Assembly: GCA_038065555.1 (NCBI GenBank)
Contig: JBBTQS010000002.1
Location: 26,399 to 90,398, forward strand
DNA: 64,000 nt
Direction: 5' to 3'
Origin: Patescibacteria group bacterium
GTDB lineage: Bacteria > Patescibacteriota > Patescibacteriia > Magasanikbacterales > JBBTQS01
The notes below the pieces were generated by a model that worked only from the letters and a program-made list of their open reading frames with translations, did not search any database and had not been told where the DNA came from. Each line of letters starts with the position of its first letter. The stretch's first letter is position 1. A program made the position numbers and the translations under genes. Of this stretch, positions 8,344 to 62,485 are shown in pieces.

Positions 8344-8365
8344 AGCAGCCAGTTTACAGAAAAAT

Positions 8366-8401
8366 ACAAAAGGGGTACCGTTCATTCTGTACCCCTTTTG
8401 T
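8366..8401 (+). terminator. Rho-independent terminator after thrS
   Basis: 13-bp perfect stem ACAAAAGGGGTAC/GTACCCCTTTTGT followed by a T-rich tract. Overlaps the miaA start region. Confidence 0.5.
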
Positions 8402-8403
8402 AT

Positions 8404-9333
8404 ATGGAAGCACCTACACTCCCAAAGCTGATAGCCATTGTCGGCCCAACCGCATCGGGAAAAACCAACTTGTCACTTGCTGTTGCCAAAGCCATTGGGG
8501 GTGAAATTATTAATGCGGATTCGCGTCAGTTGTATCGTGGAATGGATATTGGGACAGCGAAGGAGTTGAATGATGGAAGTGTGCCTGGTGCATATGCCGT
8601 GCAAGGAGTTGTCCACCACCTTATTGACATCGCAGATCCGGATCAGGAGATTACGCTTGCGCATTATCAGACGCTTACATTTCGTGCGATTGAAGACATA
8701 ACAGCACGTGGCAAAGTACCAATGCTAGTAGGTGGAACAGGACTCTACGTTCAGGCAATTATTGATAATCTTGATATTCCTCGTGTACCACCCAATGCCG
8801 CACTGCGTCATGAACTCGAGAGCCTGACAACCGAAGCGCTCATGGACATCCTCACTGCTGAAGATCCTGAGGCATCTGAGACTATGGATCCATTCAATCG
8901 TCGCTATATTATTCGTGCGATCGAAATCGTGCGCACAACCGGCGCATCAAATGCGTCACAAAAGAAATGCGGTGAGCCGAAGTGCTGCGTGTTGCTGCTC
9001 GGTGTACAGCGTGATCGGGAAGAACTTGCGGTGCGTATTCATGCACGCATTATGAGCATGCTCGAAGCAGGATTGGTGGACGAGACGAAGCGTCTCATGA
9101 GTAAGTACGGATTTCACCTCTCTGCCATGAGCTCGATTGGGTATTGTGAAATGGAATCATACCTTCGCGGAGAAATTTCGCTCGAAGCGGCGATTGAGCG
9201 CATGGAAGCACGCACTCGCCAGTTCGCACGAAGACAACTCACGTGGTGGCGTCGACCAGGGACGCGGGATGTGGTGTGGGTAGAGTCGGATGCTGAGGCT
9301 ATTGGGTTGGCTGAGAAGTTCTTGCGTGCATAG
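8404..9333 (+). CDS. miaA: tRNA dimethylallyltransferase
   Basis: P-loop GPTASGKT followed by DSRQLYRGMDIGTAK, the canonical MiaA N-terminus. Confidence 0.9.
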   Translation: MEAPTLPKLIAIVGPTASGKTNLSLAVAKAIGGEIINADSRQLYRGMDIGTAKELNDGSVPGAYAVQGVVHHLIDIADPDQEITLAHYQTLTFRAIEDITARGKVPMLVGGTGLYVQAIIDNLDIPRVPPNAALRHELESLTTEALMDILTAEDPEASETMDPFNRRYIIRAIEIVRTTGASNASQKKCGEPKCCVLLLGVQRDREELAVRIHARIMSMLEAGLVDETKRLMSKYGFHLSAMSSIGYCEMESYLRGEISLEAAIERMEARTRQFARRQLTWWRRPGTRDVVWVESDAEAIGLAEKFLRA

Positions 9334-9345
9334 ATTCGCGTAACT

Positions 9346-9514
9346 CCAAAAATAAAGAGTGCTTGGTGCGTCGGGGTACAACGTTCCATTCCCTAACCGG
9401 GAATGGCCGTCTCGTTCTCGGCTGATCGGACAATGTATTACGCCTTGCGGCAAATGCAGCTGGCCGATCAGCCTGCGAAAGCCCCCTCGTGCACCAAGCA
9501 CTCTTTGTTTTTGG
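9346..9514 (+). repeat. Structured repeat element, copy A (candidate ncRNA / 3-prime-end element)
   Basis: Roughly 30-bp terminal stem (with G-U pairs) enclosing the conserved core GGGGUACAACGUUCCAUUCCCUAACCGGGAAUGGCCGUCUCGUUCUCGG ... CCUGCGAAAGCCCCC. Immediately 3-prime of miaA. Confidence 0.6.
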
Positions 9515-9599
9515 CGTCGCGCACATCCACGCACCCCAGAGCTTCTGAGTAAGTCTGACAGTGTTTGTGGTATGACACGTCTGTATGAGTGTGCGCGTG

Positions 9600-9772
9600 G
9601 TTACGGGTAGTGTGGTTCCCTCTGTGAAAGGGGGCCAACGGAGGCCGACCGGCCAGCCAGATCCGCCGTTAGGCGATCCGCGTTGTCCGGTCGACCGAGT
9701 TAGAGACCCAATTTCTCGGTTAGAGAAATTGAGGTTGTACCCCGTCACAGAGGGAACCACAGTACCCGTAAC
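9600..9772 (-). repeat. Structured repeat element, copy C (same family, opposite strand, diverged with compensatory changes)
   Basis: The reverse complement aligns helix-by-helix with copies A and B (GGGG UACAAC ... AAUUUCUC UAACCG AGAAAUU ... CCCCC). Paired positions co-vary (ccattccc/ggaatgg becomes aatttctc/agaaatt). The roughly 33-bp terminal stem is unrelated to those of A and B. Confidence 0.55.
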
Positions 9773-9812
9773 AATGAATACACCTCATAAAGATGTGTTA
9801 TACTAAAAACCT

Positions 9813-19654: not shown

Positions 19655-19726
19655 GCCTTCGTCGTTCAATGGATAGGACACAGGTTTCCGGTACCTGTGA
19701 TAGAGGTTCGATTCCTCTCGAGGGCA
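19655..19726 (+). tRNA. tRNA-Arg (anticodon CCG)
   Basis: Hand-folded cloverleaf: 7-bp acceptor GCCTTCG/CGAGGGC (one G-U pair), D-stem GTTC/GGAC, anticodon stem CAGGT/ACCTG with loop TTCCGGT, T-arm AGAGG-TTCGATT-CCTCT, discriminator A, no encoded CCA. Confidence 0.85.
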
Positions 19727-19877
19727 CAGCCATTCATTCTTTCTGGGGTACAACGTTCCATTCCCTAACCGGGAATGGCCGTCTCGTTCTCGGTCGGCCG
19801 GACAACGGTCCGTCTTTTTGCGTTTTCTGCTGACCGGCCGTCCTGCGAAAGCCCCCAGAAAGAATGAATGGCTGTGC
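19724..19877 (+). repeat. Structured repeat element, copy B; its terminal stem overlaps the last 3 nt of tRNA-Arg
   Basis: Perfect 25-bp terminal stem GCACAGCCATTCATTCTTTCTGGGG/CCCCCAGAAAGAATGAATGGCTGTGC enclosing a core whose first 49 nt are identical to copy A. The internal helix differs from copy A by compensatory changes (CTGATCGG/CCGATCAG becomes TCGGCCGG/CCGGCCGT). Confidence 0.6.
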
Positions 19878-33750: not shown

Positions 33751-34803
33751 TTATCGCACGCCAATACGGGTGCGGAGTTGTTGCATCGTTGCGCGGGCGA
33801 CAGTCTGTGCACGGGTAGTTGATGGTTCGAGGAGTTCCAGAATCTGCGCTGGCTTCTTGAGAAGTGCTTTGCGCTTCGCGCGGTAGTCTGCGAAGAATTC
33901 GCCGATGTGATGCGCGAGAGTTTTCTTGAGATCGCCGTAACGAATTGGTCCGTGTGCAAATTGCGTATTCACCTCCGGTGGCGCGAAGTGGTGGAGCATG
34001 GACAACAAGCTCTCCACACCACGAACGCCTCGCTGTTGCGCTGCATCCATCTTCGCGATCGCTGCCTCGTCCGCTGTCCAGCCTTTCTTCGCAGAGTAGG
34101 AGAGTGGGACGGTGCCTGTGGTCTCGGTTACTGCACGCTTGAGCTTGTCGAGAATGATATCTGGTTCGTCAGTGAGCGCGATGTAATGCTGAATACCCAA
34201 TGATTTGCTCATTTTTTTCGTTGGCTCTGCGAGACTCAAGACCTTCGGGATGTCGGTGAGCAGCGCCTTGGGTTCGCGCAATTTCGTCGAGTAACGACGG
34301 TTGAACCAGCGCACGATGTCGCGTGTGAGTTCGATGTGTTGCACCTGATCCTGACCAACAGGCACGAACGACGCGCCATAGAGAGCGATATCCGCTGCCT
34401 GTAGCACAGGGTAGTCGAACAATCCGACATTGATGTTCTGTACTTGGCGCGCGGACTTGTCTTTGTACTGCGTCATGCGCTCAAGCTCACTCATCGGTGT
34501 CACACAATTGAAATACCACGCCAGCTCCACGTGCTCCGGAACCATCGACTGAATAAAGAGTGTAGATTTTTGTGGATCCAGTCCGAGGGCGAGTAGCGAC
34601 GCCACAGCCTCGAGCGTACCCGCAAACTTCTTCTTCGGATCATAGTCCTGCGTCAGCGAGTGCAAATCTGCCACAAAGAAAAAGCAGTCGTATTTGCTAG
34701 ATTCTTGCAGCGCCACGCAGTTCTTGAGCGCGCCCAAGTAATTGCCAATGTGAATGTCGCCGGAAGGTTGGATGCCAGTGATTGCAACGGGTTTCTGTGC
34801 CAT
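33751..34803 (-). CDS. trpS: Tryptophanyl-tRNA synthetase
   Basis: N-terminal GIQPSGDIHIGNYLGA (HIGH-class motif) and KMSKS. Confidence 0.9.
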   Translation of the reverse strand: MAQKPVAITGIQPSGDIHIGNYLGALKNCVALQESSKYDCFFFVADLHSLTQDYDPKKKFAGTLEAVASLLALGLDPQKSTLFIQSMVPEHVELAWYFNCVTPMSELERMTQYKDKSARQVQNINVGLFDYPVLQAADIALYGASFVPVGQDQVQHIELTRDIVRWFNRRYSTKLREPKALLTDIPKVLSLAEPTKKMSKSLGIQHYIALTDEPDIILDKLKRAVTETTGTVPLSYSAKKGWTADEAAIAKMDAAQQRGVRGVESLLSMLHHFAPPEVNTQFAHGPIRYGDLKKTLAHHIGEFFADYRAKRKALLKKPAQILELLEPSTTRAQTVARATMQQLRTRIGVR

Positions 34804-34885
34804 AGGGGTTTTGGGCAGTATACCATGGGTATTTTGCTCAACAAAAGTGCGGGCATCAGACAGGCGCTAACCCTAGGGTGAAGTT

Positions 34886-34955
34886 AGGTCAGGAGAGTGC
34901 TCCCCCAAGTCGCACTAGCAACCGAAAGCGACTTGGGGGAGCACTCTCCTGACCT
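34886..34955. repeat. Perfect 28-bp hairpin H1 with 14-nt loop ACTAGCAACCGAAA
   Basis: Arms AGGTCAGGAGAGTGCTCCCCCAAGTCGC / GCGACTTGGGGGAGCACTCTCCTGACCT with no mismatch. Confidence 0.6.
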
Positions 34956-35087
34956 CTCTCCATCACAGGGCCAGTGACCGCCCGATGGTCGCGCCTCTGG
35001 TGAACGAAGTCTCCTGGCACACGCCTCGCCTCGACACCGCGTATGCGATGTGTTGTGCATCTGCGCCGTGTGGTGCGCTGTTGCGAG

Positions 35088-35157
35088 AGCTTCAGACACA
35101 TTGTTCCCAACCCGCTTTCGGTTGCTAGTGCGGGTTGGGAACAATGTGTCTGAAGCT
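35088..35157. repeat. Perfect 28-bp hairpin H2; loop TTTCGGTTGCTAGT is the exact reverse complement of the H1 loop, and stems are unrelated except near the loop
   Basis: Arms AGCTTCAGACACATTGTTCCCAACCCGC / GCGGGTTGGGAACAATGTGTCTGAAGCT. Loop-proximal stem bases (CCCAA.yCGC) are shared with H1. Confidence 0.6.
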
Positions 35158-35178
35158 ACCACACCGGTGGACCAACGA

Positions 35179-35221
35179 CGCAAAAACACAACACCCCCGC
35201 AAAAGCGGAGGTGTTGTTGTG
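35179..35221 (-). terminator. Rho-independent terminator of the RNase J gene
   Basis: On the minus strand the stem CACAACAACACCUCCGC/GCGGGGGUGUUGUG closes with a G-U pair and is followed by UUUUUG. On the plus strand the same position would be a C-A mismatch, which assigns the strand. Confidence 0.55.
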
Positions 35222-35228
35222 GGGTGTT

Positions 35229-37205
35229 TTAGACTTCGATCAACACCGGCAAAATCATTGGTCGGCGCTTGGTCTTGGTGTAGAGATACTCTCCCAAGTC
35301 ATCGCGCAACTTGTTCTTGATGATGTTGGCGTCAGAACGCGCTGCTTCATCGCTCTTTTCGATGAGTGTGCGTGCGCGCTTGCGGACGTCTTCGATGAGA
35401 TCTTTTTGTTCTTTGAGATGCACGAATCCGCGAGAGATAATGTCAGGATTCTGCGTGAGCTTGCCTGTTGAGTGAGACATGGTGGCGATGATCACGACCA
35501 TGCCGTCTTCAGAAAGCGCTTGGCGATCGCGCAGAACCACTGCGCCAACGTCACCAACTCCCAGTCCGTCTACGAACACGTATTCTGTGTCTACTTTGTC
35601 CTTGAGCAACACGCCCTTGCCTGTGGAATCGAATTCCATGACCTGGCCGTTGTCTGCGACAAAGATATTTTCTTCAGGCCATTTCATTGCGCGTGCTGCC
35701 TTGGCATTGTAGCGCAACATGAAGTGGTTGCCGTGGATAGGCACGAAGTACTTCGGACGAATGAGCTGAAGCATCAATTTGATGTCCTCAGTCTTTGCGT
35801 GACCACCGGAGTGGACATCCATCATGGTGTAGTTGATCACATTGGCGCCACGGCGGAAGAGTACATCCATGAGACGCTGTACACTGCGCTCGTTACCCGG
35901 AATGACCGAGGATGAGAACACGACCGTGTCGCCTGGAATGATCTTCGCGAATCGGTGTTCATTGCTTGCAATGCGCATGAGCACTGCAGACTTCTCACCC
36001 TGCGCGCCGGTGCACATGATAATGACTTTTTCCTTTGGATAATCGTCGATTTCATCAATGCCGATCATGACGCTCTTCGGTACCTCCATGTACTTGAGCA
36101 TCTTCATGATTTCGACGTTGGTCTTCATGCTGTAGCCGTCGATGGCGAGCTTCTTGCCGAGCTTGGTCGCGATCTCGATGACTTGCTGTACGCGCGAGAG
36201 CAAAGAAGCAAATGTGCCGATAATGATGCGACCTTGTGCTTTCACGAAGATTGCTTCGAGTGCTTGGCCGATCGTGTGCTCTGAGATCTGGTGTCCTTCG
36301 CAGTTTGCGTTGGTGCTGTCTGAGAGAAGCGCGAGAACACCTTTGCTGCCGATTTCTGCGAGTCGTCCGAGGTTGGCAGGTTTGTTATCCACCGGCTGGA
36401 AATCGAACTTCCAGTCGCCGGTGTGAATAATGGTTCCTGCCGCCGTGTGAATCACCACACCCATTGAGTCAGGAATATTGTGGTTGACGTGGAAGAATTC
36501 AATGCGGAAGTGTCCGAGCTGCAACGTCTCTTCAAGTGTCACTGAGCGCAAGTTGAGCTCGTAACCACCGAAATCTTCTTGGCGCTTCTTGATAATCGCG
36601 AGTGTGAGGGGGAGTCCGTATACAGGGGGATTGCCCATCTCTGGAACAATATGTGGGATACCTCCGATGTGGTCGTAGTGACCGTGCGTGATGATTACAC
36701 CACGAACATTCTTTTCTTTGCCCTTCACGTACGAAACGTTCGGGATGATGTAGTCGATACCTGGCATGTCTTCGTCAGGGAATTGGAGTCCCATGTCAAC
36801 GAAGATAATGTCGTTCTTGTATTCAATCAGTGTGCAGTTGCGGCCGACTTCCTCGAGTCCGCCAAGTACAATTACTCGAACCTTGTCTGCGCCAGAACCA
36901 AACGACTGTTCGCGCATGACCTGTGGACGTGCACCGCCAGCGCCACGAGGGTGGCGACCACCATCGTGCATTGGTTGGCGAGGGCCGCGATCGTTGCCGC
37001 GCTGTGGGAGCAATGTGCGGCGAGCTTCAATAATTTGAGGTGGAACCTCAGACGCTTCGGTTTGCATTGGACGCGCTGAAGGCGCGGGGCCACTTGCAAG
37101 ACGCTTTTGCACCGAATTACGCATCGGGCGAGCGCGCAGTCCATGCATCGGGGCGTTGCCTCGATGTCCCATTCTGCGTGGGGAAGTTCCTTCTGATGTT
37201 TGCAT
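35229..37205 (-). CDS. rnj: Ribonuclease J (metallo-beta-lactamase/beta-CASP RNase) with an Arg/Pro/Gly-rich N-terminal extension
   Basis: HGHYDHIGG motif, beta-CASP and C-terminal domain. The ORF-track start 37280 overlaps tRNA-Leu; trimmed to ATG 37205. The true start could be further downstream. Confidence 0.85.
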   Translation of the reverse strand: MQTSEGTSPRRMGHRGNAPMHGLRARPMRNSVQKRLASGPAPSARPMQTEASEVPPQIIEARRTLLPQRGNDRGPRQPMHDGGRHPRGAGGARPQVMREQSFGSGADKVRVIVLGGLEEVGRNCTLIEYKNDIIFVDMGLQFPDEDMPGIDYIIPNVSYVKGKEKNVRGVIITHGHYDHIGGIPHIVPEMGNPPVYGLPLTLAIIKKRQEDFGGYELNLRSVTLEETLQLGHFRIEFFHVNHNIPDSMGVVIHTAAGTIIHTGDWKFDFQPVDNKPANLGRLAEIGSKGVLALLSDSTNANCEGHQISEHTIGQALEAIFVKAQGRIIIGTFASLLSRVQQVIEIATKLGKKLAIDGYSMKTNVEIMKMLKYMEVPKSVMIGIDEIDDYPKEKVIIMCTGAQGEKSAVLMRIASNEHRFAKIIPGDTVVFSSSVIPGNERSVQRLMDVLFRRGANVINYTMMDVHSGGHAKTEDIKLMLQLIRPKYFVPIHGNHFMLRYNAKAARAMKWPEENIFVADNGQVMEFDSTGKGVLLKDKVDTEYVFVDGLGVGDVGAVVLRDRQALSEDGMVVIIATMSHSTGKLTQNPDIISRGFVHLKEQKDLIEDVRKRARTLIEKSDEAARSDANIIKNKLRDDLGEYLYTKTKRRPMILPVLIEV

Positions 37206-37248
37206 AGGAAAAAAGAGAATCGTTAAAAATAAAATGTGAACCTCTTTG

Positions 37249-37332
37249 TGCCGTGGGCGGGACTTGAACCCGCACACCACAGGTGGTACAGCGCTCTGAA
37301 CGCTGCGTGTCTACCAATTTCACCACCACGGC
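37249..37332 (-). tRNA. tRNA-Leu (anticodon CAG), long variable arm
   Basis: Acceptor GCCGTGG/CCACGGC, D-loop AAATTGGTAGA, anticodon stem CAGCG/CGCTG with loop TTCAGAG, 16-nt variable arm, T-arm GCGGG-TTCAAGT-CCCGC, discriminator A. Confidence 0.85.
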
Positions 37333-62421: not shown

Positions 62422-62422
62422 C

Positions 62423-62485
62423 AGACAAAAATAAAAGATTCCTGGAGTACAACGTTGGTCCCCAGGAATCTTTTATTTTTGTCTG
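62423..62485. terminator. Long perfect hairpin terminator after tRNA-Leu(GAG)
   Basis: ACAAAAATAAAAGATTCCTGG ... CCAGGAATCTTTTATTTTTGT. Confidence 0.55.

Follow-up and report, generated by a model that had tools for sequence, protein, structure and literature searches.

The DNA examined here is a stretch of 64,000 nt from contig JBBTQS010000002.1 (hereafter the window), belonging to an uncultured Patescibacteria (candidate phyla radiation, CPR) bacterium from groundwater of the Hainich aquifer. Between the genes encoding RNase J (rnj) and tryptophan--tRNA ligase (trpS), an intergenic region of 425 nt (34804-35228) carries two perfect 28-bp hairpins, designated H1 and H2, which are positioned downstream of the rnj terminator and upstream of the inferred trpS promoter (Table 1). 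A first-pass annotation, made from the letters of the window alone, had reported this location together with two perfect hairpins bearing inverse-complementary 14-nt loops, and its placement, coordinates and sequences proved exact. We describe here how the stems and loops of these hairpins vary among related haplotypes and what may maintain them.

Architecture of the H1 and H2 hairpins

H1 pairs the arms 34886-34913 and 34928-34955 around a loop at 34914-34927 that reads ACTAGCAACCGAAA on the plus strand, and H2 pairs 35088-35115 with 35130-35157 around a loop at 35116-35129 (TTTCGGTTGCTAGT, plus strand). Each hairpin comprises 70 bases with 28/28 complementary pairs, and the loop of H2 is the exact reverse complement of the H1 loop. 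The likeness extends into the adjoining stem, where the annotation had noted three or four shared pairs: both hairpins have the same three closing CGC/GCG pairs and agree at 8 of the 10 pairs nearest the loop (CCCAAnnCGC). Beyond this apex the stems are unrelated, with only 6/18 of the outer pairs identical, so that homology between the H1 and H2 stems is not demonstrable there. When the window was scanned for perfect hairpins with 13 or more bp per arm, five were returned, H1 and H2 being the longest. Allowing up to two mismatches, the loop was found in the window only in H1, in H2 and in a single chance-level match inside a gene (0.36 expected). With this length, and with a loop motif nearly confined to the pair, the two hairpins far exceed what chance would produce. 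Folded as single-stranded DNA, each is predicted to reach -36 to -38 kcal/mol (z of about -13). CTAG, which occurs 38 times in the window versus 64 expected, is rarer relative to expectation than every other tetranucleotide but one, yet both conserved loops contain it (34915 and 35125).

Both hairpins are sharp-edged perfect repeats within longer imperfect palindromes: after 28/28 pairs come two mismatches, followed by complementarity of about 60%. Around H1, the quasi-palindrome has 81-nt arms that are 74% complementary, and its outer parts (about 60%) reach the -35 region of trpS. These outer arms match at 19/32 and 17/30 positions, compared to a background of 8.0 +/- 2.5 of 32, in which 20,000 random centres never gave more than 18. 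The quasi-palindrome around H2 was delimited by local alignment, in which 4/2000 shuffles scored equally high. Its outer arm on the RNase J side consists of the ancestral terminator tail and a short stretch downstream, both shared with the relatives L014 and L030, and homology with relatives extends to 35184. An inverted copy of this arm (20 nt, 80%) lies on the inner side of H2, at 35050-35074.

Stem pairs change on both sides without G·U intermediates

The window was compared with three additional haplotypes (L018, L028 and L029) drawn from the 90%-identity TrpS cluster. Their divergence from the window at third codon positions is 7% for L018 and 20 to 24% for L028 and L029, and the third codon positions of the window and L028 (212/991 different, 21%) served as the neutral reference. 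Of the 224 cells formed by the 56 stem pairs in the four haplotypes, 220 show Watson-Crick pairing and the other four carry plain mismatches (C·A, two A·A and A·C); G·U does not occur. Seventeen of the 56 pairs have changed on both sides, none on one side only, and eight of these 17 double changes are of the transversion type (AU>UA, GC>CG, CG>AU, UA>GC), for which no route through G·U is possible. All 500 shuffles, as well as all slid controls, scored lower. H1 occurs as two alleles differing at 10/28 pairs (allele B being that of L028), both of which are perfect over the same 28 columns. In H2, seven pairs are swapped on both sides, and three haplotypes retain 26-27/28 pairs, with the mismatches C·A, A·A and A·C and never G·U.

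Between the window and L028, 16/56 pairs (29%) have been swapped, versus 21% divergence at third positions; the stem sequence itself is unconstrained, changing per pair at about the neutral rate. The 13-bp rnj terminator, located 30 nt away, provides an internal control for RNA-type evolution, and there 3/13 pairs vary one-sidedly via G·U without any double change. Independent mutation followed by selected compensation can neither proceed at or above the neutral rate nor be expected to avoid G·U. The swaps in the hairpin stems do both, with no delay left for compensation, and copying of one arm onto the other accounts for both observations. The 26-27/28 pairs of H2 in three haplotypes further show that such arm correction is recurrent but not instantaneous. 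That stem pairing is maintained at the DNA level, and not by selection on RNA, is well supported, and the suggestion of the annotation that this may be a DNA-level element is borne out by the lack of G·U, by the transversion-type half of the swaps and by the different behavior of the terminator.

The intergenic region also combines, in mosaic fashion, segments of two lineages that are about 21% apart at third positions. L018, although only 7% diverged genome-wide, combines a lineage-II H2 region with a lineage-I H1 identical to that of the window, and L029, with a near-lineage-I H1, shows the reverse pattern for H1. These arrangements indicate recombination with breakpoints at or near the hairpins.

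The strongest competing explanation is an RNA element on the sense (minus) strand, produced by read-through from rnj or from an undetected promoter, and we consider it unlikely. The 28-bp duplexes would then act as stems bound by proteins or as substrates of the RNase III type, the two loops, which are perfectly complementary within one strand, would form a 14-bp kissing contact, and the stability of the rnj 3' end or the expression of trpS would be altered. The intergenic RNA is indeed predicted to fold very stably (z = -19 on the minus strand and -14 on the plus strand). In the outer helix of H1 (34956-34987 with 34854-34885), seven G·U pairs on the minus strand are invariant in 4/4 haplotypes. 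Pairing in this helix, G·U included, extends to 81% of cells on the minus strand versus 61% on the plus strand, and six one-sided G·U/Watson-Crick changes and three double changes were counted on the minus strand. This G·U excess reflects either an RNA-level constraint or strand-biased C-to-T mutation; the outer arms of H2 show no strand bias.

Several observations argue against transcription or RNA function of the inner stems. The element falls outside both expected transcripts, after the conserved terminator and before the conserved trpS -10, a consensus scan found no promoter inside the insert, and the coding potential of the insert is limited to spurious open reading frames (ORFs). Given this position between terminator and promoter, without an internal promoter-like site or a credible ORF, a dedicated transcript is unlikely. 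An RNA reading also sits poorly with double swaps at the neutral rate and with inner stems that avoid the G·U pairs used by the neighboring RNA hairpin. No Rfam model matched the region at its gathering score, including the T-box upstream of trpS, and at E <=10 only sub-threshold microRNA-precursor models appeared (best 44.6 versus 66 bits), which reflects the presence of a long hairpin. A kissing contact would permit covariation between the loops and would not demand their strict identity, whereas the loop change seen in L029 is uncompensated. A target of the loop in trans was likewise not detected among RNase P RNA, four tRNAs, the 5' regions of trpS and rnj, and the cores of the D2 repeat family described below, none of which formed a duplex beyond those of shuffled loops (|z| <2).

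The loops are conserved between diverged lineages

Between the window and L028, no change is found in the 28 loop nucleotides or in the 12 closing nucleotides, while about six would be expected for the loops alone (P = 0.786^28, about 0.001; about 7e-5 for all 40 nt). The sole loop substitution in the four haplotypes is a G-to-A change in H1 of L029. Loop orientation is fixed as well: on the minus strand, H2 reads ACTAGC... and H1 reads ...GCTAGT in all haplotypes, and inversion of the spacer, a by-product expected of template switching, was not seen in any haplotype at either hairpin. The conserved unit is thus, as the annotation had described it, the loop plus its closing pairs presented on a free stem. 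Purifying selection on the loop is supported at modest statistical strength, and recognition by a protein is its probable cause. In H2 of L018, two variable loop-adjacent pairs are partly H1-like (GT/GC versus CC/GG), so conversion between H1 and H2 may help to keep the loops alike. Such conversion is insufficient to explain loop identity across lineages, since the adjoining stems differ between them.

Another possibility is that the doublet is a functionless by-product of template switching, in which a small hairpin was copied as its reverse complement into a palindrome about 200 bp away and the arms were then homogenised mechanically, the loops staying alike through H1-H2 conversion and recombination between strains. 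Restriction of the motif to one locus would agree with this, as would the mosaic haplotypes with breakpoints at or near the hairpins and the H1-like pairs of L018, which resemble an H1-to-H2 conversion tract; moreover, two reports describe nearby reverse-complement copies with homogenised arms as the typical outcome of template switching (PMC8794818, PMC8604942). We nevertheless find it rather unlikely. The loops and closing pairs remained unchanged while third positions and stem pairs diverged, and conversion between H1 and H2 homogenises within a genome but puts no brake on drift between lineages. Because the adjacent stems differ, a recombination tract confined to the loop would have to measure 20-34 nt, and to have occurred twice. 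The orientation and the 28-bp boundary are also conserved.

The hairpins lie in a lineage-specific insertion

Both hairpins, some in naturally variant forms, are present in at least six assemblies from four studies. An assembly artefact was ruled out: SPAdes-style, MEGAHIT-style (k141) and Logan assemblies made independently are in agreement, and changes in the variants are compensated. A TrpS identical to that of the window is deposited as a protein of a metagenome-assembled "Patescibacteria group bacterium". Assemblies are nonetheless disturbed at H1: three Logan contigs (L004, L005 and L020) terminate at or within the hairpin, a stretch of N interrupts it in L002 (~2893-2902), and in L001 (2848-2960) a left arm of allele A is joined to a right arm and flank resembling allele B (70/75 identical to L028). 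Sequencing error was rejected for this right arm because it is allele-B-like, making L001 an A/B mosaic that switches at the conserved apex.

Both hairpins are part of an insertion found in the window, L018, L028 and L029 and confined to the clade with at least 97% TrpS identity. The comparison with orthologous intergenic regions that the annotation had proposed showed it to be absent from relatives at 92%, 90%, 88% and 66% TrpS identity. In the first three (L030 and L012/L013/L014) RNase J-trpS synteny is kept and the terminator is followed directly by the -10 element TGGTATACT; in the last (L015) the motif is absent. The short, hairpin-free intergenic regions of these relatives imply that the window lineage gained about 320 nt. 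The insert has a GC content of 58%, versus 53% for the window. No source of the stems or of the insert was found within the window, where matches were at chance level, and blastn gave no match to the insert in phage and plasmid collections. Its two ends (~35166 and ~34847) do not form an inverted repeat, and the junctions carry only low-complexity TTTTG or CAC.

Recurrence of the doublet was examined in 80.2 kb of the host genome (the window, L021 and L024) and in every fetched locus, with up to three mismatches, and neither a second doublet nor a second loop motif was found. A loop 18-mer had five matches in GTDB species representatives and a loop 20-mer one in JGI metagenomes, whereas IMG/VR gave no match to the loop; as none of the six matches is flanked by inverted repeats, they are chance matches. 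The annotation had reasoned that a loop recurring nowhere else would be a local duplication accident. Non-recurrence was indeed what these searches returned, but the accident is a poor fit, since two lineages with 21% divergence at third codon positions have kept the loop.

Could the doublet be a non-autonomous mobile palindrome, of the kind of repetitive extragenic palindromes (REP/REPIN) or miniature inverted-repeat transposable elements (MITEs), moved by a transposase encoded elsewhere? An extragenic inverted doublet of palindromic units just after a terminator, missing from close relatives and 5 GC points above a window that holds no source for it, would suit such an element; so would the GTAG that precedes the H2 stem on the minus strand in all haplotypes, and the D2 family likewise includes an inverted doublet. 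We judge this quite improbable. The single doublet in 80 kb, with none in the database scans, contrasts with the tens to hundreds of copies per genome typical of REPs. H1 has no GTAG/CGTC tag (GAGAG/GAGAA is found instead), and the stems or ends that are conserved in REPs and MITEs are variable here. The terminal inverted repeats and direct target-site duplication of a MITE are also wanting, the insert ends showing no such repeats and no clear target duplication. Finally, NCBIfam and Pfam models identified no transposase (Y1/RAYT or other), recombinase, reverse transcriptase, HUH, Nop-domain or hairpin-binding gene among the ~40 ORFs of the window.

Very improbable is a lox-like pair of sites (~13-8-13 in the 34-bp apex) bounding an invertible 168-bp segment upstream of trpS (an inverton): although the apex carries inverted arms, matching at 11/13, on either side of an asymmetric centre, the two sites are mutually inverted upstream of a gene, and an identical crossover requirement would account for identical loops, only one orientation occurs in seven full-length contigs (window, L001, L003, L018, L019, L028 and L029), the segment has no promoter-like site, the window encodes no recombinase, and the 18 further perfect, unshared pairs per stem would stay unexplained, with inversion destroying both palindromes.

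Probable arm copying around a putatively selected loop

The reading that we favor, with moderate confidence, is that the arms are kept identical by template switching at the DNA level and that purifying selection acts on the loop, which probably serves as a hairpin-borne protein recognition site. H1 and H2 would represent two copies, one per strand, of an apex module made of the 14-nt loop closed by CGC/GCG, each centred in a long quasi-palindrome within the insertion of one Patescibacteria clade. Their arms would be re-copied from each other through intramolecular template switching on a replication hairpin (quasipalindrome correction or arm-to-arm gene conversion), whereby every mutation is either erased or passed on to the partner arm. 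The same copying may have drawn the ancestral flank, i.e., the terminator tail and the promoter edge, into the outer, decaying arms. The palindromes, like those of the D2 family, would be nucleated by a small hairpin, then grown or refreshed from the centre by template switching with the local flank, and growth of this kind would put a conserved core on an arbitrary stem with no need of a separate origin for every stem.

As selected letters are confined to the exposed loop and its closing pairs, a DNA hairpin or cruciform appears to be the likeliest functional form, its loop being read sequence-specifically by a protein, with one target per strand. A nicking, priming or other hairpin-binding enzyme would be a candidate reader. 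A protein-read loop on a DNA hairpin is our best guess from the pattern of conservation; for the more specific functions that the annotation had offered, a protein site on a cruciform or a recombination site, the window encodes no partner enzyme. Arm copying by template switching also leaves the exact 28-bp limit of perfect pairing, shared by both hairpins and both H1 alleles, unexplained. Common descent of the 70-nt unit is the simplest answer, and a length limit or molecular ruler an alternative one.

Several points weigh against this reading. Only four haplotypes were available, and the events are few and partly shared by descent. Loop conservation could stem in part from H1-H2 conversion and from recombination between lineages, the haplotypes being mosaic. 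The gene inventory of the window holds no hairpin-binding, HUH, recombinase or transposase gene, a dedicated reader for a single locus would be odd, and the lack of a second locus or a partner gene in the sequences searched speaks against an elaborate system. A 14-nt spacer would disfavor cruciform extrusion from duplex DNA, and the better pairing of the H1 outer helix on the sense strand hints at a constraint at the RNA level.

Going further, the doublet may belong to a new kind of loop-defined DNA element, in which a hairpin-binding enzyme would read the 14-nt loop on single-stranded DNA, one target on each strand, the 28-bp arms would be actively regenerated to a fixed length from whichever one survives, and any core inserted in this organism (this apex or the D2 core) would gain a long stem built from its local flank; we regard this as speculative and improbable.

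Comparison with known systems

Hairpin origins and nick sites, such as those of rolling-circle Rep/HUH enzymes, vertebrate mitochondrial OriL and single-strand priming signals, combine a conserved loop with a paired stem of free sequence. They act on single-stranded DNA with strand specificity, have stems of ~6-12 bp, and are part of replicons or mobile elements which either encode the enzyme or are known to recruit it. H1 and H2 differ from them in that both copies are chromosomal, their stems measure 28 bp and no gene is associated with them.

The closest resemblance in how the arms evolve is to template switching, which creates and repairs perfect stems and produces multi-base "compensatory" changes (PMC8794818, PMC5941160). 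As in H1 and H2, the inverted repeats described by Lavi et al. 2018 (PMC5941160) and Monttinen and Loytynoja 2022 (PMC8794818) place a sharp perfect repeat inside an imperfect one, show compensatory changes that include transversion swaps without G·U intermediates, and extend their arms into the flank. Those repeats are mostly <15 bp or stems of RNA genes and have no conserved spacer, whereas H1 and H2 have 28-bp arms, a shared and selected 14-nt spacer and a 28-bp boundary in all haplotypes.

REP/BIME/REPIN elements and their RAYT proteins (Y1, HUH) share with the present locus an extragenic position after a terminator, an alternating doublet and, as presumed substrate, a hairpin on single-stranded DNA (PMC3333891, PMC8266576, PMC3733652). 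REPs are nonetheless imperfect, highly repeated units of 20-40 nt with a conserved stem and a GTAG/CGTC tag (same references); here there is one doublet with variable stems and a conserved loop, GTAG stands only at H2 on the minus strand, and no RAYT is found among the window ORFs. With lox/FRT sites and invertons, H1 and H2 share a 34-bp unit with inverted arms and an asymmetric core, arranged as an inverted pair ~200 bp apart upstream of a gene; they differ in that no second orientation was seen, no recombinase was found, and the long unshared arms have no role in that model.

TIGR arrays (TIGR-Tas, PMC12045711), which are common in CPR, likewise have variable palindromic stems with short conserved motifs near the loop. 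Each of their loops, however, contains a pair of variable spacers of 8-12 nt with box C/D motifs beside them, and the units are numerous, form arrays and adjoin a Tas gene with a Nop domain (PMC12045711). A TIGR-Tas array was rejected because of the invariant 14-nt loop, the presence of only two units and the lack of a Nop-domain match among the window ORFs. Integron attC sites were also rejected, the stems being free of bulges, conservation lying at the apex and not at the base (R/L boxes), and no integrase being encoded in the window. As for intrinsic terminators, H1 and H2 have 14-nt loops and no T-run, and the terminator scan lists only that of rnj (35217-35188).

Neighboring genes and annotation

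The coordinates of the locus are collected in Table 1. The -10 element of the inferred trpS promoter is located 13 nt before the ATG and occupies the same place in L012, L014, L030, L028 and L029. Although a strict consensus scan does not list it, the arrangement TTGTTG-16-TGGTATACT probably functions as the trpS promoter.

Table 1. Features of the rnj-trpS locus in the window and of the corresponding intergenic regions in relatives
Feature	Position	Strand	Description
H1	34886..34955		perfect 28-bp inverted repeat, 14-nt loop; 28/28 Watson-Crick in 4/4 haplotypes
H2	35088..35157		perfect 28-bp inverted repeat, 14-nt loop; other haplotypes 26-27/28
H1 apex	34904..34937		34 nt, CCCAAGTCGC-loop-GCGACTTGGG; H2 counterpart 35106-35139, inverted, 88% complementary; invariant part across hairpins and haplotypes CGC-N14-GCG, 20 nt
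H1 extended quasi-palindrome	34833..35008		81-nt arms, 74% complementary; outer parts about 60%, reaching the trpS -35 region
H2 extended quasi-palindrome	~35050..35194		terminator-tail arm and its inverted copy
Lineage-specific insertion	34847..35166		~320 nt; both hairpins and a 41-nt spacer, 35009-35049
trpS (tryptophan--tRNA ligase)	33751..34803	-	TIGR00233, 278 bits
Inferred trpS promoter	34817..34844	-	-35 TTGTTG 34839-34844, 16-nt spacer, extended -10 TGGTATACT 34817-34825
RNase J intrinsic terminator	35182..35217	-	13-bp stem, 4-nt loop, T-run (hairpin 35217-35188); conserved in relatives
rnj (RNase J)	35229..37148	-	TIGR00649, 554 bits; 639 aa in public calls; exact product on 9 contigs
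Relatives at 90% and 88% TrpS identity (L012/L013/L014)			intergenic 73 nt, no hairpins
Relative at 92% TrpS identity (L030)			intergenic 114 nt, no hairpins

In the window (34801-34825), L012, L014 and L030, TGGTATACT stands only 9-13 nt before the trpS ATG, without a Shine-Dalgarno sequence, which suggests that the trpS mRNA of this group has no leader or a very short one. At the other end of the locus, the longest RNase J ORF (683 aa) runs at its 5' end into tRNA-Leu(CAG) (37248-37332, minus strand); public calls start later (639 or 658 aa), so the start of the longest ORF is wrong. The insert has also affected gene calling. In L028 (3001-4350, P0125), a 449-aa TrpS call, whose first 99 residues are translated insert with the H1 loop read as PKSLSVASATW, is a mis-annotation due to the insert, and a similar spurious ORF of 101 aa is found in the window at 34884-35189 (minus strand).

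The D2 repeat family and other hairpins of the window

A larger repeat family of the window, D2, has three copies (9311-9549, plus strand; 9589-9783, minus strand; 19724-19877, plus strand) that share a core of ~110 nt, GGGGTACAAC...CTGCGAAAGCCCC. The core is predicted to fold into a three-way junction of 38 pairs, 11 of which show double changes among the three copies, and it has no match in Rfam at E <=1. In all three copies a long stem of variable sequence closes the core; its pairing is flawless over the nearest 16-25 bp and decays farther out, and the parallel that the annotation had drawn between this family and H1/H2 is apt in this respect. Copies 1 and 2 are arranged as an inverted doublet, as H2 and H1 are, while copy 3 begins at the last bases of tRNA-Arg(CCG). 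The left arm of copy 1 (9311-9333) overlaps the last 23 nt of miaA, the gene ending at 9333, and its inverted copy lies beyond the core at 9527-9549. This arrangement suggests that D2 arms may be built by inverted copying of flanking DNA. Two further perfect hairpins, at 8364-8403 and 62422-62485 (15 bp and 24 bp), follow thrS and tRNA-Leu(GAG), respectively, and their apexes (GGGGTAC-CGTTCATTC and AGTACAACGTTGG) resemble the first ~15 nt of the D2 core.

Implications

The locus is a variant of known things, namely, inverted repeats maintained by template switching and extragenic palindromes. In practical terms, the hairpins break assemblies, leaving contig ends, an N gap and a chimeric contig, and cause the mis-called 449-aa TrpS. 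If the favored reading is correct, the locus would be an unusually clear natural example in which three processes are separable within 425 bases: RNA-type evolution with G·U in the terminator, copying of DNA arms in the 28-bp stems, and purifying selection on the loop. This would bear on the old question of how long perfect stems originate and are kept up. Were the more speculative loop-defined element to hold, there would exist a mechanism making inverted duplications of flanking sequence around a recognised core. H1 and H2 would also amount to a sequence-specific hairpin loop in a CPR genome, and the enzyme that reads it, if it exists, would be new.

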